Shown here one piece after another: positions 6,091 to 22,100 of a stretch of DNA of 32,877 bases. Position numbers and translations under genes: made by a program. The DNA is from Syntrophales bacterium (GTDB taxonomy: Bacteria; Desulfobacterota; Syntrophia; Syntrophales; UBA2210). The stretch spans positions 1-32,877 of the forward strand of contig JAQUQY010000001.1 of NCBI GenBank assembly GCA_028715865.1, read 5' to 3'. A model generated the notes under the pieces. That model worked only from the letters and a program-made list of their open reading frames with translations, ran no database searches and was not told where the DNA came from. The stretch's first letter is position 1. Each line of letters begins with the position of its first letter.

Positions 6091-6230
6091 TGAACCGCCC
6101 CGGGATTGCCGGAGACTTCATTCTGTGAGAGGGTGGAGTCATGAAAGCACAAAGCAGGTATTCCCCTGAAGTCAGAGAGAGGGCGGTTCGAATGGTATTT
6201 GACCATGAGCGTGAGCACGAGTCTCAGTGG
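6091..6230 (+). mobile_element. Truncated left end of an IS3-family (IS51/IS6110-like) insertion sequence: terminal inverted repeat plus the first 30 codons of orfA
   Basis: TGAACCGCCCCGGGATTGCCGGAGACTTC closely resembles the IS6110 28-bp IR as I recall it (TGAACCGCCCCGGCATGTCCGGAGACTC). ATG 6141 encodes MKAQSRYSPEVRERAVRMVFDHEREHESQW, compared with IS6110 OrfA ...RRYPPELRERAVRMVAEIRGQHDSEW. Similarity stops near 6230. Confidence 0.75.
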
Positions 6231-7504
6231 TCACAGATATTGTCGCCTGTCCGGAGCGTTCCTGCCATGTAATCGCCCACCAACCGCTCCGGCGTTTCAG
6301 GTGGAGCGCCGACCACCACGTCGATGCCCTGTTCTGTGAAAAGGCCTTGGGCCCGCTGGCCCATGCCTCCGGCTATTATAAGGTTGGCTCCCCGCTCCGC
6401 CAGCCATGGTGGCAGAAGCCCAGGCTGGTGAGGGGGAGCTTCCACGTCTTCCCGCCCGATGATTTTTTTCTCTACCGGATCGACATCGATAAGAGCAAAC
6501 TGTTCACAGTGCCCGAAATGCATGGAAAGTTTGCCCTTTGCCATGGGAATCGCAATCCGCATATGTTTGTCCTCCTTTTCAATTCCCGTCTCAACTGGTT
6601 TTTCCAAAACGTCCTTCTCGTCCAGTGCCAATATGGGACTCATTATGGCTGCCATGATGCCTGCTGTTGGATTCGAGGCGTAGTGCCGAACAAAAACACG
6701 CCCTTTGTCGGCGGCTTCAGCAACCTCCGAATCCATGGGAATGGAACCGAGAAATGGCACGCCCATGTCCTCGGCGATACTTTTTCCGGCGCCGGAACTA
6801 AGGATATGCGTTACTTCACCACACTTCGGACAAATGAAGCCGCTCATGTTCTCCACAACCCCAAGTAACGGTACGTTGAGCTGACGGCAAAAAGTAATGG
6901 ATTTTCGGACGTCCACCGCCGAGAGCTTCTGGGGGGTGGTGACAACGACGGCTCCGTCAAGTTGTCCTATTATCTGGCAGACCGAAAGAGGTTCGTCACC
7001 TGTCCCGGGAGGAGAATCTATTACGAGGTAATCCAGATCCTCCCAAACCACATCCATAAGAAATTGCTTGATAACACCCATTTTCATCGGACCACGCCAG
7101 ATAACCGCGTCATCGGGATTCCGAAGCAGCAGTCCAAGGGACATTACCTTCATGCCTCCAACGTCAACAGGGAGAAATCCTTCTTCGCAACTTTTGATCG
7201 TCGCGCCATCCAGACCCGGCATGGTTGGAATGCTCGGACCATGTATATCAACATCGAGAAGACCGACTTTTTTCCCCGACAGCATGAGAGTAGTTGCCAG
7301 ATTCACAGCCACTGTACTTTTGCCTACGCCTCCCTTGCCTGAGAGCACAACCACCTTGTGCCTTATGCGGCATAGCCGTGACTCCAATTTTTGCCTTTCC
7401 TGAAAATCCCGGTCGCTTTCACCATCCTTCCGCTGGGAGGTAGAGCAATCCCGGTCGGAACAGCTGCCGCATGAGTCAGCGCCTGCCGAGGCCCCTTCGA
7501 TCAT
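6224..7504 (-). CDS. Mrp/NBP35-family Fe-S cluster carrier ATPase fused to a C-terminal NifB/NifX-type (dinitrogenase FeMo-cofactor-binding-like) domain
   Basis: Deviant Walker A VVLSGKGGVGKST and an ICPKCG motif typical of Mrp/ApbC. The C-terminal 120 aa (MRIAIPMAKGKLSMHFGHCEQFALIDV...IIAGGMGQRAQ) are NifX/NifB-like. Its start overlaps the upstream stop (ATGA). Confidence 0.85.
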   Translation of the reverse strand: MIEGASAGADSCGSCSDRDCSTSQRKDGESDRDFQERQKLESRLCRIRHKVVVLSGKGGVGKSTVAVNLATTLMLSGKKVGLLDVDIHGPSIPTMPGLDGATIKSCEEGFLPVDVGGMKVMSLGLLLRNPDDAVIWRGPMKMGVIKQFLMDVVWEDLDYLVIDSPPGTGDEPLSVCQIIGQLDGAVVVTTPQKLSAVDVRKSITFCRQLNVPLLGVVENMSGFICPKCGEVTHILSSGAGKSIAEDMGVPFLGSIPMDSEVAEAADKGRVFVRHYASNPTAGIMAAIMSPILALDEKDVLEKPVETGIEKEDKHMRIAIPMAKGKLSMHFGHCEQFALIDVDPVEKKIIGREDVEAPPHQPGLLPPWLAERGANLIIAGGMGQRAQGLFTEQGIDVVVGAPPETPERLVGDYMAGTLRTGDNICDH

Positions 7505-7773
7505 GCCCAGTGCCCTTCCACGTCGGGAGCCTTTGCCTCCTCCAGACGTCCTGACCGGTATTCTTCCAGCGCCTCGGCTACCGTCCCGGCGCTGGTGTTG
7601 AAAACTGCAATCCCAGCCGCCGTAAGAACACGAAATGCCTTCGGACCGCAGTGACCCGTAACGAGAGCCTTCGCGCCCGTCCCCGCAACTGTTTGCGCCG
7701 ATTGAATTCCGGCCCCTTGGGCCGCGTTAAGATTCTGCCGGTTGTCTATCACTTCGAAGGCGTCACTTTCCAT
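7501..7773 (-). CDS. NifB/NifX-family small protein; this is the uninterrupted part downstream of an in-frame TGA (the full gene appears to be 7501-7863)
   Basis: NLNAAQGAGIQ...TGHCGPKAF...EGHWA matches the small NifX-like family. The ORF track starts it at an internal Met. Confidence 0.75.
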   Translation of the reverse strand: MESDAFEVIDNRQNLNAAQGAGIQSAQTVAGTGAKALVTGHCGPKAFRVLTAAGIAVFNTSAGTVAEALEEYRSGRLEEAKAPDVEGHWA

Positions 7774-7863
7774 GTCATATACCAGAAACTTCGCCGCCCG
7801 ACCGAAACGTCAGTCCAGCGGAGCCTTAAGATCGTCACCTGATGATGTAAATGCTATTTTCAC
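7774..7863 (-). other. N-terminal 30 codons of the NifX-like gene (GTG 7863 with a GGAGG RBS), in frame with 7501-7773 but containing TGA at 7810-7812
   Basis: Hand translation gives VKIAFTSSGDDLKAPLD*RFGRAAKFLVYDM. This is the conserved N-terminus of the family (MKIA...DPRFGRA), with GGAGG 9 nt upstream of the GTG. Confidence 0.7.
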
Positions 7864-8002
7864 CTGTACATGCCTCCTCACGTGCATCTGTGGTTCATTT
7901 ATGAATGACCGCGCCATCTTCATGGAAAGGGCGCGGCAGCTCATCCTCACAACATACAACTACACGAAGGTTAAGCCGTTCATCTAAAAAGTTTCGAGAT
8001 TA

Positions 8003-8314
8003 TCAGTCCGTCGCGTTTCCGGCTTCAAGCTCGGCAAGACGCTTCCTTATGCTTTCCAGTTCGACCTGCAGGACATCCGCCTGGTTCCTGAGCGCCTGTT
8101 TTTCCATCTCAGGTTCCGGTTCCTGATATGGAGCCGCATGGCCGTAAGGCGCCGCGTAACGGCCGAAGCTACCCCAGCCGGGGAAAACGCCGGCAGTGAC
8201 CATGTCTCGCCATCGGAATCCTGCTCCTCCAAATCCTCTTCCCCGGGTTCCACGTTCTCTGCCGAAGCCCATTCCATAGTTTCTTCCTGGAACGGGATTG
8301 GCGTATCCCGGCAT
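8003..8314 (-). CDS. DUF5320-family protein (Gly/Arg-rich N-terminus, C-terminal coiled coil)
   Basis: MPGYANPVPGRNYGMGFGRERGTRGRGFGG... followed by EMEKQALRNQADVLQVELESIRKRLAELE. This is the architecture and gene neighbourhood (NifX-like plus Mrp) I associate with DUF5320. The ORF could also start at 8347. Confidence 0.6.
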   Translation of the reverse strand: MPGYANPVPGRNYGMGFGRERGTRGRGFGGAGFRWRDMVTAGVFPGWGSFGRYAAPYGHAAPYQEPEPEMEKQALRNQADVLQVELESIRKRLAELEAGNATD

Positions 8315-8436
8315 TGCGAAAACATCCCGCTCGAGACTGTTCGCCATCCAGGCGCTTATTGCCTCGCCCAGATCACCGGCAACAACTGAATGCTGTTCTC
8401 ATTCTCCGGGCCTTTTTGTCCTTTGCCCCATAACAC

Positions 8437-8452
8437 AGCAATACTGGTGCCA
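8437..8452 (-). promoter_or_regulatory. Sigma-54 (-24/-12) promoter: TGGCAC-CAGTA-TTGCT
   Basis: Exact match to the TGGCAC-N5-TTGCW consensus on the minus strand. It lies about 90-120 nt upstream of the DUF5320 start and immediately downstream of a sigma-54 activator gene. Confidence 0.75.
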
Positions 8453-8556
8453 AAGCGCCACCATCATAGCAATTTTTATAACGTCTCGATATTATTGTAT
8501 ATAAATTGAATGGAAAGTATGTGACCGGGATTGGTAGGTTGCGATATAGCTACTGC

Positions 8557-8715
8557 TTATGCCAGCTCAGGCGCATTGATGCTACTCTTATTCTTTCGTG
8601 AAGATCGGCCGTCCTTTTCCGGAAGGGTCATGCCAAGCCTCTTCATTCTGCGGAAGAGTGTGGTTTTATGGATACCAAGTTCCCGTGCCGCCGCGAGGCG
8701 GTTGAAGCCGTTTTT
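8557..8715 (-). pseudogene. Detached Fis-type HTH DNA-binding segment of the sigma-54 activator, in frame behind a TAA stop
   Basis: Hand translation after TAA (8716-8718) gives KNGFNRLAAARELGIHKTTLFRRMKRLGMTLPEKDG...*. This is the canonical C-terminal HTH of NtrC-family enhancer-binding proteins. Confidence 0.7.
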
Positions 8716-10059
8716 TTACAAAGCGGCCTTGATAGCCTGGGTGTCGAGGATTTCGTGGGCGGACCTGATATTCTGATCAATGCCCACCTTTGAACCTCGC
8801 TTCGTCAATTCTTCAGGCAACTGTTCAATCCCGATGTGACCGTCGCCTCGTAAAATAAAGGCCCGCTCAATGACATTCTCCAGCTCCCTGATATTTCCGG
8901 GCCAGTCATGGGCCATGAAAAGCGAGAAGGCTTCCGGTGTCACACCCTGCACTGACTTTTGCTGCAGCCTGTTAAATCGCGCGACAAACTGGGCCGCCAG
9001 GAGAGGAATATCTTCTTTTCGCCGGCGAAGCGGGGGCAATTCAAGACGTACCACGTTCACACGATAATAGAGGTCCTCCCGGAAAAGACCCTGATTCATC
9101 CTGGCCGCGAGATCCCTATTGGTCGCCACAATCACGCGAACATCAGCTTTTTCGGATCTGGTTGATCCAAGGGGCTCAAAGGTTCGCTCCTGAAGTACCC
9201 TGAGAAGCCGGACCTGGAGGGCCGGTGATATCTCGCCTATTTCATCGAGAAACAACGTACCTCCCCGGGCCAGGGCGAAACGGCCGGGCTTGTCACGGTT
9301 GGCGCCAGTAAAGGCTCCAGCCTTGTAGCCGAATAGTTCCGACTCAAGGAGCGTTTCGGGCAGCGCCCCGCAATTGACTGCCACAAAGGGGGAACGGTTT
9401 CGCGGGCTGAGGGAATGAATCGTCCTCGCAACAAGCTCCTTGCCTGTTCCCGTTTCGCCAAGGAGAAGAACGGTGCTGGGGCTTGCGGCAATCGCGGGTA
9501 GAACCTCGAACACCTTCTGCATAAGGGGGCTTCGGCTTGACAGATCACCTACACGGTATTTTCCCTCAAGTTCCTGACGCAGAGCTTCGATTTCCGACAA
9601 GTCCCGGAAGGTCTCCGCCCCGCCGATGACTTCGCCGCGGCCATCCCTAAGCACCGCCGTGGAGATGCTTATTGAAATGCGGTTTCCGTCGGCATCAATA
9701 ATGTATCCTGATTTTCCGATGACAGGTTTGCCCGTCTTCAAGGTTTTCTGAAGCGAGCAGTCTGCCCCGCACATACTGGATCGGAAGACCTCCGAGCAGA
9801 GTCGGCCCAAGGCCTGCTCCCGCGGAACCCCGGTAATCTCTTCGGCTGCCCGGTTGAAGGACGTGACGCGCCATTCCATGTCCACCGTAAAAACACCGTC
9901 AGAGATGCTCTCCAGGATTTCATCCGTCGGAGTACGCATATTCGACACTTTGTTCTTTCTTCCCGTCATAACCGCTTGTTTACCCACGTGTTCCAGGTGC
10001 GTGGATCTTAAAAAATGGTTGCTGTTCTCCCTGCGCCTCTCACGGTTCACCTGCCGCAC
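8716..10059 (-). CDS. Sigma-54-dependent transcriptional activator (PAS sensor plus AAA+ domain), ending prematurely at an in-frame TAA
   Basis: PAS-like N-terminus (ILESISDGVFTVDMEWRVTSFNRAAEEITG). Walker A is LLLGETGTGKE and the GAFTGA loop is YKAGAFTGA, with RELENVIERA near the end of the AAA+ domain. The maximal ORF starts at GTG 10059; ATG 9969 or 9939 is more likely. Confidence 0.85.
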   Translation of the reverse strand: MRQVNRERRRENSNHFLRSTHLEHVGKQAVMTGRKNKVSNMRTPTDEILESISDGVFTVDMEWRVTSFNRAAEEITGVPREQALGRLCSEVFRSSMCGADCSLQKTLKTGKPVIGKSGYIIDADGNRISISISTAVLRDGRGEVIGGAETFRDLSEIEALRQELEGKYRVGDLSSRSPLMQKVFEVLPAIAASPSTVLLLGETGTGKELVARTIHSLSPRNRSPFVAVNCGALPETLLESELFGYKAGAFTGANRDKPGRFALARGGTLFLDEIGEISPALQVRLLRVLQERTFEPLGSTRSEKADVRVIVATNRDLAARMNQGLFREDLYYRVNVVRLELPPLRRRKEDIPLLAAQFVARFNRLQQKSVQGVTPEAFSLFMAHDWPGNIRELENVIERAFILRGDGHIGIEQLPEELTKRGSKVGIDQNIRSAHEILDTQAIKAAL

Positions 10060-10225: not shown

Positions 10226-10246
10226 TGAACCGCCCCGGATAGTCCG
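10226..10246 (+). repeat. Solo IS3/IS6110-type terminal inverted-repeat remnant (TGAACCGCCCCGGATAGTCCG)
   Basis: The first 13 nt are identical to the IR at 6091-6103. The next 8 nt resemble the IS6110 right IR as recalled (…GGTGAGTCCGG…). No transposase coding sequence follows. Confidence 0.5.
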
Positions 10247-10634: not shown

Positions 10635-10838
10635 CTAGATGATTTTTACATTCTCTGCTGATGGACCTTTCGCGCCCTTTACAACATCGAAGCTCACGGA
10701 CTGGCCTTCAGTCAAGGTCTTGAATCCACCGGCCTGGATGGCGCTGTAATGCACAAAAACATCACCGCTGCCATCACTCTTCTCGATAAACCCGAAACCT
10801 TTGCCTTCGTTAAACCATTTCACTTTACCTTCTGACAT
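10635..10838 (-). CDS. Cold-shock protein, CspA family
   Basis: 67 aa. [12 protein letters not shown] (RNP-1) and DVFVHYS (RNP-2) motifs. AGGAGG RBS. Confidence 0.95.
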
Positions 10839-11007
10839 CGCTTGTATCCTCCTTTCTTAAATTTTCTCAGCCGGATCAAAACGATGACAAGGTAAAAAAA
10901 TAGCCACCCAGACATTAGAGCATGGTGGCCATCCCTCGCACTTCAAAATGTCTCTATCCAACTTTCTGCCGCACTTCTTTAAGGATTAAATATGCAGCAT
11001 GCTGGTG

Positions 11008-11036
11008 ACATTACACCTGTGCTGCTCAATAGTCAA
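11008..11036 (-). promoter_or_regulatory. Candidate sigma-70 promoter of csp (TTGACT - 17 nt - TAATGT), giving a 5' UTR of about 160 nt
   Basis: Hexamers read on the minus strand. The long leader agrees with cspA-type thermosensing UTRs. Confidence 0.4.
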
Positions 11037-11195
11037 GGATTATTTTACTAACAGTTATTTTGTAATGTCTAAGAAACCGGTGCTTACGCGGGAAAGTCCC
11101 TGAAACGTCCCGGGTATTAAGGAGCCGTCGTTAATGGATGTTCTTGACCTGCGCTTGCATGCTTTGCCTATATTAGCATGATATTATTAATAAAA

Positions 11196-11224
11196 TGGCG
11201 GAAGTGCATGGGAATCGAACCCAC
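11196..11224. repeat. Distal att repeat: a 29-bp duplicate of the 3' end of tRNA-Sec
   Basis: TGGCGGAAGTGCATGGGAATCGAACCCAC is identical to 16511-16539. Confidence 0.9.
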
Positions 11225-11436
11225 AGGGCTGATTGCAACAATATGTAATTATTATGATAATTCTTTTTAGAAAAAAGCGGGTACAGAATGGGGACAGCCC
11301 CTGCCACCTGCACAATAATCACCGGCGGATCTCACAGTACTGCATATCTTCAGATACATCTATATGGGTTGGTCGTACGCTTACCCAAAAACAGCTGAAG
11401 TATTGCAAGGTGGTTTTTCAGGTAATCAACTGATTG

Positions 11437-15380: not shown

Positions 15381-16496
15381 ATGAAGGGATCAATCCATTA
15401 TCGGAAAGACCGGAAACGATGGCTTGTCAGGTGGTACCATGAAGGAAAAGCCTACAATATCTATCGCTACAACGGAGAATATTTATATGATAGGAGACTG
15501 GCGGAAAAGCTCTTGTCCTGCATGCAGGCAGACGAAGAAAGAAATGTTTTCCGAATCGAAAAATATCTCTATTCGGCAACGGATGTTGTCCCTTATCTGA
15601 GGAAATGGCTTGAAAGTATATCATCCACCTTATCACCGGCAACACATAAGGATTATCAAAACAGCATAGAAAACCATCTCGCCCCGTGGTTTGATGAAAA
15701 CCCCTTCATGCTCCATGAAATTCAATACGACGTTTTGTGTCGACTCATGAATGACATTAAGAGATCGGGCAAGGGAAAGCTCAATGTCCTGTATTGCTTG
15801 AGAGCCTGCCTGGACTACGCATGGAGATCCGGACGAATACCGGCGATTCCTCCTTTTCCGAAAAGAAAAATGTTCGGGATCGTTGAAAAATCCATAAAGT
15901 GGGTTCGTGAGGACAGGCAAAAGGCGATCATTGAAGCGATTCCCGAAGCGCATCAACCAATCTTCTGGTGGCTCAAATACCACTTGCGCCGACCATCTGA
16001 GGCTATGGCGCTCATGAAGGAAGACTATGATCAGGATGCCGACGTTTTCATTATTAGAAGGGCCTTTTCAAATAAGAAGCTAATTGATCGCACGAAGACG
16101 GGCAAGATTCACATCATCCCCTGTCACCCGGATTTCAAGAAGATGATGGAACGGATGCCCTTAACCTTCTCGCCTTTCATGTTTACAAATCAAACAGGAC
16201 GGCTTGAAGGGAAGCATTACCAGCACGATTACTTGGTTGATCTCTGGAACAAAGCATGTCGGGACGTGGGAGAGTCGATAAACATGTATGCCGGATTGAA
16301 GCATTCTTCGTGCTCGCAGTATGTAAACGAGAAGGGCTTGTCAATTGATGAACTGCAAATGCTGACGGATCACGCACGACGGGAAAGCGTTTTGAAATAT
16401 GCCGCGGTCCAGGCAGAAGCAAAAAGAAAACTCATGGCAAGAGTGGTTTCAATTGGGAACAGAACGGGAACAGAAAAAAAGACAGCCGATGGCTGA
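15381..16496 (+). CDS. int: Tyrosine-type site-specific integrase
   Basis: C-terminal catalytic region ...LRRPSEAMAL (Arg I) ... GLKHSSCSQY ... LTDHARRESVLKY (H-x-x-R ... Y). It lies next to the tRNA att site. ATG 15381 is preferred over the ORF-track start 15321. Confidence 0.9.
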   Translation: MKGSIHYRKDRKRWLVRWYHEGKAYNIYRYNGEYLYDRRLAEKLLSCMQADEERNVFRIEKYLYSATDVVPYLRKWLESISSTLSPATHKDYQNSIENHLAPWFDENPFMLHEIQYDVLCRLMNDIKRSGKGKLNVLYCLRACLDYAWRSGRIPAIPPFPKRKMFGIVEKSIKWVREDRQKAIIEAIPEAHQPIFWWLKYHLRRPSEAMALMKEDYDQDADVFIIRRAFSNKKLIDRTKTGKIHIIPCHPDFKKMMERMPLTFSPFMFTNQTGRLEGKHYQHDYLVDLWNKACRDVGESINMYAGLKHSSCSQYVNEKGLSIDELQMLTDHARRESVLKYAAVQAEAKRKLMARVVSIGNRTGTEKKTADG

Positions 16497-16510
16497 AATT
16501 ACTCATAAAT

Positions 16511-16539
16511 TGGCGGAAGTGCATGGGAATCGAACCCAC
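16511..16539. repeat. Proximal att repeat (the 3' 29 nt of the intact tRNA-Sec)
   Basis: Identical to 11196-11224. Confidence 0.9.
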
Positions 16540-16608
16540 CTGAGAGGTTACTAGCCCCCCACACTGGATTTGAAGTCCAGGAGGCCCACCAGAGACCTTG
16601 GCACTTCC
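16511..16608 (-). tRNA. selC: tRNA-Sec (anticodon UCA)
   Basis: 98 nt: GGAAGTGC...CTGGA-CTTCAAA-TCCAG...GTGGGTTCGATTCCCAT-GCACTTCC-G-CCA. It has an 8-bp acceptor stem, a long variable arm, anticodon TCA (plus-strand tga at 16571-16573) and an encoded CCA. The anticodon arm is identical to E. coli selC as I recall it. Confidence 0.9.
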
Positions 16609-16618
16609 GCGAGGACTA

Positions 16619-16647
16619 TGCATACAGAAAACGGTCTTGGCTGTCAA
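16619..16647 (-). promoter_or_regulatory. Candidate sigma-70 promoter of selC (TTGACA - 17 nt - TATGCA)
   Basis: The -10 ends 10 nt upstream of the mature tRNA 5' end. Hexamers read on the minus strand. Confidence 0.45.
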
Positions 16648-16674
16648 TGACGATGATGGCAAGAACGCTTAAGA

Positions 16675-17925
16675 TTAAAAATCAAGATACTGGGGCTCAG
16701 CAGCCGCGAGCAGTGAGTTGTCGATGAGCTGGACCGCTACTTCGTCTCCCCTTTCGGCATTGGTCATCGCTCTCGGCAGTACTATGATGCCGTTCGCCAG
16801 CACCATGGATTTTAGGATGCCCGATCCCTGGTCACCGGTGGTCCTTACGGTCATCCGTCCATTCCGGCATGACAGTATCCCCCTTAGGAAGTATGTGAAC
16901 CCGCTTCGCTTGGCCAATTTTTCTTCCAGAACAGCCTTGACGGTTTTTCTATATAGAGCCCTGTGGCCGGTTATTTTTCGAAGAGCCGGCCTCACGTACT
17001 GTTCGAAAGACATCATCGCCGAAACAGGGTTTCCCGGCAATCCAAAGAAGGGAACTGATCCAAGTGTGGCAAAGGTAAAGGGCTTTCCCGGTCTTTGAGC
17101 CACGGTGTCGAATTCGACGCGGGCGCCCAGGTTTTTGAAAACCGACTGGACGAAATCGTAATCACCAACGGAAACGCCCCCCGATGATATGATCACATGG
17201 GCCTCTTCCTTCGCCTTGCTTAACAGGGTAAAGACGTCTCCCCGGTTATCCTTGGCGATACCCAGAATCAGCGGGATTCCTCCTCCTTCGGTCACCTGTC
17301 CAAACAGGGAGTAACTGTTGCTGTTCACAATTCTTCCCGAAGAGGGATCGCCATCGATGTCCATGAGTTCGTCGCCGGTAGAGATGATTGCTACAACAGG
17401 CCTTTTGTAAACTGGGACCAGCGAGTTTCCAGTCGCCGCCAGCATACCCATGTGTGCTGGCCCGATGAGGGTTCCCTTGGCTATTACTGTTTCTCCCTCC
17501 GTTACATCCTCCCCACGGCGCCTGACGTTCGCCCCCTCTCCAACTGGCTCGAAAAAAGTCACCCTGTCTCCCTCGGTATCCACGTCTTCGATTTTTACTA
17601 CCGCATCGGCCCCGTCTGGAATGGGGGCACCCGTCATAATCCTCGAGACCTCTCCCCTTCCGGGTGACTTATCCGGGACAATCCCGGCAGGGATCTCTTC
17701 CACGCACCGGAGCGTTACCGGCACTTCCCTCGAAGCCTTTTTAATGTCTTCCCACTTAAGGGCGTATCCGTCCATGGCCGAATTATCCCGCGGCGGGATA
17801 TGGCGCGACGAATAGATATCCTTCGCAATAACCCGGTTAAGGCTTTCCGTGATAGCGACCCGTTCAACACCCAGGGAACTGACAAAATCGATAATCTGTG
17901 ACAGGCAATCTTCTGCGGTCTTCAT
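16675..17925 (-). CDS. moeA: Molybdopterin molybdenumtransferase MoeA
   Basis: SPRDNSAMDGYAL, the MoeA domain order and the C-terminal beta-barrel region. ATG 17925 (MKTAEDCL...) is preferred; the ORF extends to 17958. Confidence 0.9.
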   Translation of the reverse strand: MKTAEDCLSQIIDFVSSLGVERVAITESLNRVIAKDIYSSRHIPPRDNSAMDGYALKWEDIKKASREVPVTLRCVEEIPAGIVPDKSPGRGEVSRIMTGAPIPDGADAVVKIEDVDTEGDRVTFFEPVGEGANVRRRGEDVTEGETVIAKGTLIGPAHMGMLAATGNSLVPVYKRPVVAIISTGDELMDIDGDPSSGRIVNSNSYSLFGQVTEGGGIPLILGIAKDNRGDVFTLLSKAKEEAHVIISSGGVSVGDYDFVQSVFKNLGARVEFDTVAQRPGKPFTFATLGSVPFFGLPGNPVSAMMSFEQYVRPALRKITGHRALYRKTVKAVLEEKLAKRSGFTYFLRGILSCRNGRMTVRTTGDQGSGILKSMVLANGIIVLPRAMTNAERGDEVAVQLIDNSLLAAAEPQYLDF

Positions 17926-19197: not shown

Positions 19198-22100
19198 ATG
19201 AGAAAAAAAGTAGAGCAGAAAGAGCGCAGTAACGACCCGGTCCTGAACTCCTTTTTTGAAAACCTGTCCAGCGAGAAAGAAACACTTCTGCTTACAGGCC
19301 TGCAGGGATCATCAGCTGCCCTTGTGTTGTCCCTTGTGTTCAAGAGACTTAACCGCACCATTCTTGTTACTCTTTCGTCACAAAAAGAAGCGGAATCCTT
19401 ATTCGGAGACCTGCAATTTTTCCTGGAACCCGGGAACGTGTTTATCCACATGGCCTGGGATATAAGACTCTTCTCCTCTGACGAAATTCTCTCTTTTGAT
19501 CAGGAAGCGGTGCAGTCAAGAATGCGTGTCCTTACAAGGCTAATGACCGGCAAGCCAATGATCGTTGTAAGTTCTACGGAAGCCCTGCTTCAGCGGGTCA
19601 TTCCCATGTCAGCTCTGGTTGATTACCTTGAAATAATCTCCCAGGGAGATAGCCTGGAACGAAGCCGCCTGGAGAATAAGCTGCTTGAGGGAGGCTACCA
19701 GAGGGTGCCCCTCGTGGAAGAACCGGGCGAATTCAGCTTGCGGGGATTCATAGCCGACATTTATTCCCCTGCCGAAGACAGTCCGGTCAGAATCGAATTT
19801 TTTGGCGATGAAATCGAATCGATCCGGGAATTCAACCCCGAAACACAGCGGTCTCTCAAAGAGATATCGTCCTTTATGATGGCTCCCGCCGGTGAAATAC
19901 TATTTACCGAGGAATCAAAGAACCTGGCACTCCGACATCTGCGGGTCCGAGCCGCCGACCTGGGCCTTTCCAGGGCCAGGAGAGACGCGCTGGCGGGGTT
20001 TATAGAAACCGGCATACTTCCCGCCACTGCGGCACAATTCCTTCCCCTTTATTACGACGAACCGAGTATGGCTGAAAGCACGCATCGCAGTTTCGAAACC
20101 ATAATCGATTATCTTCCAAAAAACGGCTTCCTTGCCTTTCTTGACCGGATCGGCATAGAGCAGACCGAGCGGGACCTGATCGGCAAAATTGAAGGTTACA
20201 CGGAGAAAGCCCGCGAGGAAGAAAGGTTTTACCTGGAGAAATCGTCTCTCTTCTCGTCCCTCGAAATGGTTAAACAGCGTTCACAGGGGTTACATAAACT
20301 TGTTTTTGATGATGCAAGGGAACACCACCAAAGCCGCGCCTTCAATTTTTCAATTGAAACACAAATTGGACTTATTCAATCCGAATTTCGAAGTGAACAC
20401 GACGGAGGTCTTCTTTTGCCATTCGTGGAGAGGGTGAAGACCTGGATGAAGGAAGGCGTTACGACGTTTTTTCTATGCGGCGAAGAAGAAATCCGGCGCA
20501 TCACACATATATTCGAGGGGTACGGCCTCACGGTGGAACAGTCATCACGGCCTTTTTTTTTGGACCTGGAAAGGTATAAAGGAAAGGGAACATTCCTGAT
20601 TAAACCAGGCAGGATTTCCGAAGGGTTCCATTACGGCTCTATGAAATTGGCCCTGGTATGCGATGAAGATCTCTTCGGAAAAAAAATCAAGCGCCGCAAA
20701 AAACCCTCCCTACGGGAAGGGTATTTTTTAAGATCCTTCGGTGAATTGAAAGAGGGCGATTTCATCGTTCATATGGATCACGGAATCGGCCTTTACCAGG
20801 GTTTGAAACGCCTGTCAGCGGCAGGCATAGAAAACGATTTTATTCTCCTCGAATACTCCGGCGGCGACAAGCTCTACCTGCCTGTGGACCGTCTTGACCA
20901 GATTCAGCGTTACGTCGGTCCCGACGGGTTCGCCCCTCCCACCGACCGCCTGGGTGGAAGCTCCTGGGAAGCAGTCAAGAAACGTGTTAGCGAGTCGGTT
21001 CGAAAGATCGCCGAGGACCTTCTGGCGCTCTACGCGGCCCGAGAGGTGATGGAGGGACACAGTTTTTCCATGAATGAACGGGCATGTGACGAGTTCGCCG
21101 CGTCCTTCGAGTTCGAGGAAACACCCGACCAGATCCGCGCCATCAATGATATCGATGATGACATGACCGATGCCAGGCCCATGGACCGGCTCATCTGCGG
21201 CGACGCCGGCTTCGGCAAGACTGAAACGGCCTTGAGGGCTTCCTTCAGGGCCGTTATGGACGGAACCCAGGTAGCCCTTCTCGTTCCAACGACCATACTG
21301 GCTGAGCAGCACTATCGAACCTTCGCCAGCCGCTTTTCATCCTGGCCGGTTCGCGTGGAAGTACTGAACCGGTTCAAGAGCAAAAAGGAACAGCAGACCA
21401 TAGTGTCGGACATCAAACGGGGACTGGTGGACATCGTCATCGGTACCCATCGTCTTCTGCAAAAGGACGTGGCCTTTCGAAACCTGGGCCTGGTTATAAT
21501 CGACGAGGAACAACGCTTCGGGGTAGCCCACAAGGAGAAGCTGAAAAAGCTGAGAAAACTGGTGGATGTCATGACGCTTACGGCAACGCCAATACCGAGA
21601 ACGCTCCAGTTATCACTGGTGGGTCTTCGGGACCTTTCAGTAATCGACACCCCGCCAGAGGGACGCCAAGCGGTGCGTGTGTATGTTGCCGAATTCGACG
21701 AAGATCTCATCCGCGATGCCATCGAGGAAGAAATGAATCGCGGCGGCCAGGTATTTTTTATACACGACAGGATACGGTCCATCGAAGGCATGGCCCGATC
21801 GGTACAGCGCATTGTCCCCGGAGCCCGGGTTGCATTTGCCCACGGCCGGATGAAAACCGGGGAACTGGAAAAAATTATGATCAGTTTCCTCGACAGGCGT
21901 ATCGATATCCTTGTATGCACCACAATCATCGGTTCCGGTGTAGATATCCCTGCTGCTAACACGATCATAATAAATCGGGCGGACCGGTTCGGACTGTCAC
22001 AGCTATATCAGCTTCGCGGCAGGGTGGGACGTTCCAGCGAAAGCGCGGCTGCCTACCTCCTTATTCCAAAGGGGGCCGTTTTGACGAAGGACGCGAGGAA

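Follow-up and report, generated by a model that had tools for sequence, protein, structure and literature searches.

The ORP-like gene and its operon

The window, a stretch of 32,877 nt from contig JAQUQY010000001.1 of a Syntrophales bacterium (assembly GCA_028715865.1), carries on its minus strand an ORP/Orp8-like gene of the NifX family whose frame is interrupted by a TGA (Table 1). Read from the GTG at 7863-7861, the frame gives VKIAFTSSGDDLKAPLD*RFGRAAKFLVYDMESDAFEVIDN... and ends at a TGA at 7503-7501, the in-frame TGA lying at 7812-7810; across codon 18 the minus-strand translation is VKIAFTSSGDDLKAPLD-TGA-RFGRAAKFLVYDMESD.... A mechanical list of open reading frames retained only a 90-aa ORF (7501-7773) for this 120-codon gene. 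The match to PF02579 (Nitro_FeMo-Co) covers residues 15-103 (E 9.8e-24; 83.9 bits, cut-off 26.3) and the stop lies inside it. Moreover, the 17 codons ahead of the TGA match those of 120-aa orthologues almost perfectly, for instance MKIAFTSSGDDLNAPLD in P0001, so the upstream frame is genuine coding sequence and not a chance extension. Such orthologues number in the thousands, with 73-83% identity and 99-100% coverage, and those of the same genus likewise start with GTG (VKIVFTTSG...).

Table 1. Positions of the features discussed, numbered along the window
Feature	Position (nt)	Strand	Basis
MrpORP gene (Mrp/NBP35 P-loop ATPase and NifX-like domain fusion); start overlaps the ORP-like stop (ATGA)	6224-7504	-	NCBIfam NF041136; Pfam ParA and Nitro_FeMo-Co
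ORP/Orp8-like NifX-family gene, 120 codons and stop, GTG start, broken at codon 18	7501-7863	-	Translation; PF02579; 120-aa orthologues
ATG (Met31) opening the 90-aa ORF; no SD-like sequence ahead	7771-7773	-	Sequence; ORF list
Weak hairpin GUUUCG-GUCGGGCGG-CGAAGU, 6 bp, two G-U pairs, 9-nt loop, from 1 nt past the UGA	7788-7808	-	Sequence reading
In-frame TGA, codon 18, context UGA-C; population allele AGA (Arg)	7810-7812	-	Sequence; contig comparison
Shine-Dalgarno-like GAGGAGG, 9 nt 5' of GTG 7863	7873-7879	-	Sequence reading
DUF5320 gene, first of the operon	8003-8347	-	PF17253, E 6.3e-11
TGGCAC-N5-TTGCT match to the sigma-54 promoter consensus, ahead of the operon	8437-8452	-	Sole match within the window
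PAS/sigma-54 activator gene; TAA at 8716-8718 between AAA+ domain and HTH	8557-10059	-	Translation; Pfam
tRNA-Sec gene (selC), unlinked to the ORP-like gene	16511-16608	-	ARAGORN; Rfam RF01852, 74.7 bits

An earlier, sequence-only reading had proposed a small protein of the NifB/NifX family encoded by 120 codons rather than by the 90-aa ORF, opened by a GGAGG ribosome binding site and GTG 7863 and interrupted at codon 18 (7810-7812). All of these proposals hold: the signals and the TGA are seen in the sequence, and both the PF02579 match, which lies above its cut-off over the small protein and spans the stop, and the upstream codons matching orthologues speak for the longer gene. Restart at the ATG at 7773 was considered as a route to function and rejected, as this codon has no SD-like sequence ahead and its product would be devoid of two conserved elements, the N-terminal strand beta-1 and the RFGRA motif. 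We suggest that the annotation give an ORP-like gene of 120 codons interrupted by a stop (pseudogene or low-quality base) instead of a 90-aa protein.

The ORP-like gene is the middle member of a sigma-54-dependent operon consisting of a DUF5320 gene, the ORP-like gene and an MrpORP gene. The MrpORP gene scores 520.7 bits against NF041136 (cut-off 450), the TGGCAC-N5-TTGCT consensus has one match in the window for a chance expectation of 0.04, and the activator gene (Sigma54_activat, E 4.7e-69) lies directly upstream of the operon. The closest solved relative of the ORP-like protein is the ORP of D. gigas (2WFB; E 9.4e-21, residues 2-113), other relatives in the PDB being 1EO1 and 1RDU. In D. 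vulgaris the orp operons are sigma-54-controlled and encode orange protein as Orp8 and MrpORP as Orp9 (PMC6345978). The operon of the window has in common with them the MrpORP neighbour, the sigma-54 promoter and a cognate activator, and its protein shares with Desulfovibrio ORP/Orp8 (DVU2108; 2WFB) the PF02579 fold family and a length of about 120 aa. Unlike the Desulfovibrio operons, it is smaller, with no Orp3-, Orp4- or Orp5-like genes nearby, and it bears a premature TGA in the ORP copy and a TAA in the activator. By analogy with the Desulfovibrio ORP complex, the binding of a Mo-Cu (or other) metal-sulfide cluster and assembly with further Orp proteins are candidate properties of the window protein.

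Codon 18 among orthologues and in the landfill population

Codon 18 is ordinarily a freely variable surface codon. Among the 120 best database orthologues the column holds Ser in 92, Thr in 11, Arg in 5, Asn in 4, Ala, Gly and Pro in 2 each, and Asp and Phe in 1 each. Smithella, Syntrophaceae and Syntrophales MAGs make up most of the named genomes with a close orthologue, and 76 named genomes gave Ser (42), Thr (17), Ala (5), Asn (4), Pro (3) and single instances of Lys, Glu, Arg, Val and Asp. Same-genus genomes have Arg (CGG), and the solved structures have Pro (ORP), Arg (MTH1175) or Asp (TM1290). Neither Cys nor TGA occupies the column in any of about 220 orthologues (120 from the database, 76 from named genomes and about 25 from related genomes), and none of the 40 related genomes with a match has a stop codon in the orthologue. 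A column that tolerates Ser, Thr, Arg, Asn, Ala, Gly, Pro, Asp, Lys, Val and Phe is too permissive to be a catalytic or metal-binding Cys/Sec site. The sequence-only reading had stated that the homologous position is usually Pro rather than Cys, and had suggested an alignment of orthologues in which to look for Cys or TGA. Once aligned, orthologues indeed showed neither, but the expectation of Pro needs correction: close orthologues mostly carry Ser, members of the genus and of the population carry Arg, and Pro is confined to remoter relatives, among them the D. gigas ORP.

Near-identical sequence was found in five landfill metagenome runs (X1 to X5), and their Logan contigs were compared with the window. 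At plus-strand position 7812 the window has A whereas the contigs of X2, X3 and X4 have T, so that codon 18 reads AGA (Arg) on the coding strand. Across the gene, this base is the sole difference between the window and the contigs of X3 (303 nt) and X4 (184 nt), and the sequence downstream of the codon, hairpin included, is unchanged in both. Word depth is low (about 2-8). X2 represents a locally divergent haplotype, with 5 differences over 410 nt. The run nearest to the window is X1, which departs from it at 3 positions in about 14 kb (2878, 16761 and 19925); its contigs break on either side of the gene (7513 and 8030), and over 7514-8029 it was judged through the word index only, while X5 gave no coverage of the site. 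All 31-mers within 7782-7842 contain position 7812, and none of the five sampled words spanning the TGA occurs in any public run examined; for the control stretch beside it (7813-7900), X1 and X3 each hold 4 of the 4 sampled words. A search of JGI metagenome contigs for the exact pattern with NNN at codon 18 returned no match, and an exact look-up of the 90-aa product of the TGA allele showed it to be on record nowhere else. These comparisons make the TGA a private feature of the present assembly and Arg (AGA) the ancestral state throughout the population. The base of the TGA is supported by no other sample of the population. A 53-nt X1 unitig joining the reverse complement of 8030-8059 to 7491-7513 hinted at an invertible segment (7491-8029), which was ruled out because its ends carry no inverted repeats and the depth is 2; the unitig was treated as a chimera.

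The same contigs bear on a second premature stop at the locus. The TAA of the activator gene recurs in contigs of two other runs, X1 (8030-8950, without a single difference) and X2 (8493-8756); it is real and population-wide.

A consensus or assembly error would explain the private TGA if the true sequence were AGA, the gene intact and the T at minus-strand 7812 miscalled, because of low coverage or of a graph mixing strains. It is favoured by the AGA of every other sample covering the site, by the absence of TGA-spanning words from all runs examined, including one as close as X1, by the low word depth and by the otherwise perfect gene; the breaks in X1 and the divergent haplotype of X2 further imply that the graph is tangled locally. 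However, short-read assemblers seldom emit a base unsupported by reads, the source run may be missing from the runs examined, and the neighbouring TAA proved real. In addition, the window agrees with X2 against X1 at 19925, a haplotype difference and not noise, which suggests that the assembled haplotype is a little different from that of X1 and that its SNPs are real. We therefore regard a miscalled base as a serious possibility, albeit one that is somewhat doubtful.

Selenocysteine decoding and the in-frame TGA

The genome does decode selenocysteine: it has a tRNA-Sec gene, a selB gene (TIGR00475, 303.5 bits, over the cut-off) and a selD gene (TIGR00476, 379.4 bits) whose own frame contains one TGA, placed where the active-site Sec classically lies (GAGUACK). 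If SelB and tRNA-Sec also decoded UGA-18, a full-length selenoprotein would be made from the ORP-like gene, a possibility to which the weak hairpin after the UGA and the existence of Sec-containing NifX-like proteins in related genomes lend some appeal. The tRNA-Sec gene, placed about 9 kb away by the sequence-only reading, is found 8.7 kb from the ORP-like gene; it is flanked by the unrelated genes for MoeA, NadA, Mfd and UvrA, and its proximity is coincidental. The hairpin exists as it had been drawn, yet it starts 1 nt past the UGA and does not form in the MFE structure, in agreement with the earlier judgement that it is not a convincing bacterial SECIS. Folding energy is of no help in this respect: the 63 nt following the UGA have a z-score of -0.15 relative to shuffled sequences, and the true Sec site of selD scores +1.25, so the test does not discriminate. 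The AGA alleles share the sequence downstream of the codon with the window, and no SECIS can therefore have co-evolved with the stop.

TGA otherwise behaves as a stop codon in this genome. It is the commonest stop, ending 197 of the 385 long frames genome-wide, and it ends the ORP-like gene itself at the C-terminus of its orthologues (...EGHWA); on these two grounds a genome-wide reassignment of TGA was rejected. A genome-wide scan for frames interrupted by one stop gave 552 candidates, mostly neighbouring genes sharing a frame, and only the stop usage was taken from it. Compared with bacterial selenoprotein genes, such as the genome's own selD, the ORP-like gene similarly combines an in-frame TGA with a conserved frame and a Sec-competent genome. 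It differs from them in that its TGA comes with no Cys/Sec column pair, no TGA in orthologues and no apparent conserved hairpin with the spacing typical of such genes, and in that the TGA allele is not fixed, the population allele encoding Arg.

What a genuine selenocysteine looks like in this Pfam family and bacterial order is illustrated by a separate PF02579 clade from other families of Syntrophales (loci L118-L140 and L147), in which TGA occupies one column at 23 loci spanning 52-99% identity. The flanks of this TGA are strongly conserved ([HQ]-U-[IV]-T-R-G-T-A-T-G-N-L-V-A-G), the exceptions L129, P0121 and P0123 have Cys in the same column, and a 7-bp hairpin starts 14 nt past the UGA in 18 of 18 sequences, with changes on both sides at one pair. 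All of these properties (conserved TGA, Cys counterparts, suitably placed hairpin) are missing at the TGA of the window. Moreover, the clade is only 37% identical to the window protein and its Sec aligns not with residue 18 but with Ala47, within a loop whose sequence is ..ASGGAGIQ.. in paralogues lacking the TGA; no member of the clade was found in the genome to which the window belongs. NCBI records cut these proteins to fragments of 63-72 aa beginning past the TGA. The main text of the selenoproteome papers examined does not mention such a Sec/Cys NifX-like clade, and a full-text search combining "selenoprotein" and "NifX" retrieved no paper. This apparently unannotated clade in related Syntrophales is a by-product that may outweigh the main finding of this analysis.

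Selenocysteine at codon 18 is close to refuted, and we give it hardly any credence. Between selenocysteine, a pseudogene and a sequencing error, the options it had left open, the sequence-only reading had argued against the first, and its case stands on the missing Cys/TGA column, the unconvincing SECIS and the AGA found elsewhere. The Cys/Sec column test and the comparison within the same population settle the question, while the proximity of a tRNA-Sec gene and a hairpin that can be drawn carry no weight.

Origin of the TGA and state of the locus

The TGA of the window hides no selenocysteine: one letter of an Arg codon has changed, either by an ordinary knockout mutation or through faulty base calling. 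That it does not reflect programmed recoding can be held with great confidence. With moderate confidence we further favour a real and young null allele. In its favour count the single-base difference from X3 and X4, the Arg of same-genus genomes, the unconstrained column, the lack of stops in the orthologues of the 40 related genomes, the use of TGA as a stop, the haplotype differences from X1, the real TAA of the activator and the IS-end 13-mers on either side of the locus. Against it stand the failure to find the TGA in any independent molecule among the public runs examined, the 90-aa product recorded nowhere else, and the fact that X1 was judged at the site through the word index. The first base of the AGA codon would have changed to T in the lineage of this assembly alone, the resulting TGA would act as an ordinary stop, and translation would end after 17 residues without yielding a functional protein, save at most for trace near-cognate readthrough at a weak UGA-C context. 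Such an allele would be very recent and borne by a minor strain, real molecules of the source sample presumably carrying the T. Beyond the TGA the gene is undecayed, as would be expected of a very young allele and of an artefact alike.

A real TGA could also be leaky, with near-cognate insertion of, for example, Trp or Arg giving enough functional full-length protein. UGA-C, which Poole, Brown and Tate (1995) reportedly described as the signal at which E. coli terminates least efficiently, and the high permissiveness of column 18 would both suit this possibility. On the other hand, the allele is private, nothing suggests that readthrough has been selected for, and readthrough at a typical few percent would still amount to a severe hypomorph; we find a usefully leaky stop very improbable. 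That the TGA is real yet decoded in this strain, either because selenocysteine is inserted although the site is SECIS-poor and not a Cys position, or because near-cognate readthrough of UGA-C is efficient, seems to us more remote still. Were it true, a surface Arg codon would have become a recoded position in a single mutational step.

The state of the activator gene may explain how a null allele of the ORP-like gene could be tolerated. The population-wide TAA cuts the activator ahead of its DNA-binding HTH, so that the operon has probably lost its inducer and is no longer induced, and we infer that selection on it was relaxed after the loss of the activator. The null allele would then have arisen in an operon whose activator had already been cut.

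The window TGA is thus an ordinary feature. Although the finding itself matters little, it provides a worked example of how a tempting "hidden selenoprotein" can be dismissed in a Sec-using genome. Like ordinary nonsense alleles and young pseudogenes of MAGs, the gene is separated from intact population alleles by a single substitution and shows no secondary decay. As with such young pseudogenes, its locus also holds another disrupted gene and IS remnants, the latter seen as identical IS-end 13-mers that flank it at 6091 and 10226.

A clade of NifX-like proteins with an in-frame TGA

The PF02579 family includes one NifX-like clade in which an in-frame TGA is conserved at residue 47 in 23 loci (among L118-L140 and L147, loci of related genomes), which come from several families of the window's order and share 52-99% identity. 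The motif surrounding the TGA is [HQ]-U-[IV]-T-R-G-T-A-T-G-N-L-V-A-G, with RF[GS]RC found upstream of it, and the residue-47 column contains Cys in place of Sec in locus L129 and in database proteins P0121 and P0123. In 18/18 sequences of the clade, the UGA is followed 14 nt further on by the start of a 7-bp hairpin, which exhibits compensatory changes, on both sides, at one pair. NCBI entries P0125 (72 aa) and P0222 (63 aa) are fragments of members of this clade, beginning 3' of the TGA. In two loci, L118 and L120, the gene lies directly 3' of another whose product is a fusion between a YihY/BrkB membrane protein and a cNMP-binding domain. The main text of a set of selenoproteome papers makes no mention of a Sec NifX-like clade and a full-text literature search combining 'selenoprotein' and 'NifX' returned no paper. 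The TGA-bearing clade looks like an unannotated selenoprotein family.

The TGA-bearing clade is absent from the window's genome. This genome encodes SelB as well as SelD, the latter itself a selenoprotein.

Selenoprotein and putative selenoprotein genes, selenocysteine machinery and the in-frame TAA (C, contigs; G027, a related genome)
Feature	Location	Strand	Sequence context
selD, window's own genome	C39:6383-7309 (locus L033 1399-2451)	minus	Sec-containing, ..TVRGAGUACKIGPGDL..
selB, window's own genome	C70		
L118, example locus of the TGA-bearing NifX-like clade	G027:C20:78710-79042	minus	
In-frame TAA, PAS/sigma-54 activator gene	8716-8718, within 8557-10059	minus	..QAIKAAL*KNGFNRLAAARELGIHKTTLFRRMKRLG..

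The in-frame TAA of the sigma-54 activator

The TAA of the activator gene falls between the AAA+ domain and the Fis-type HTH. An X1 contig (8030-8950; X1 is the landfill metagenome run closest to the window) carries it with 0 differences from the window, and it is also found in a contig of a second landfill run, X2 (8493-8756). Because it occurs in independent X1 and X2 contigs, the activator TAA, unlike the TGA of the ORP-like gene, is real in the population. The sigma-54 locus containing both in-frame stops is flanked by two identical copies of the 13-mer TGAACCGCCCCGG in the same orientation (6091-6103 and 10226-10238; 0.01 expected).

Local variation and assembly breaks

While divergence elsewhere is about 0.1-0.2% (20 kb compared), positions 7620-8029 form a polymorphism hotspot, where an X2 contig bears 5 differences in 410 nt (7760, 7812, 7883, 7884 and 7979); the G>A change at 7760 replaces Ala35 of the ORP-like protein with Val. 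In X1, contig ends fall precisely on 7513 and 8030, and one X2 contig stops at 8029. One X1 unitig (53 nt, depth 2) joins the reverse complement of 8030-8059 to 7491-7513, matching the right-hand junction expected for an inversion of 7491-8029. No inverted repeats were found at the ends of this segment, and the unitig is probably a chimeric read that gave rise to the graph branches.

Contig word depth reaches 77-148 in X1 and X2 at 10673-11339 and 16009-16675, versus about 5-8 in the remainder, and the sequence of these two regions is common to many other organisms in the samples. Numerous loose contig ends cluster at about 11190-11223 and 16505-16542, one contig of a third landfill run, X4, skips 16611-16703, and the tRNA-Sec gene is among the spots where the depth peaks and loose ends fall.
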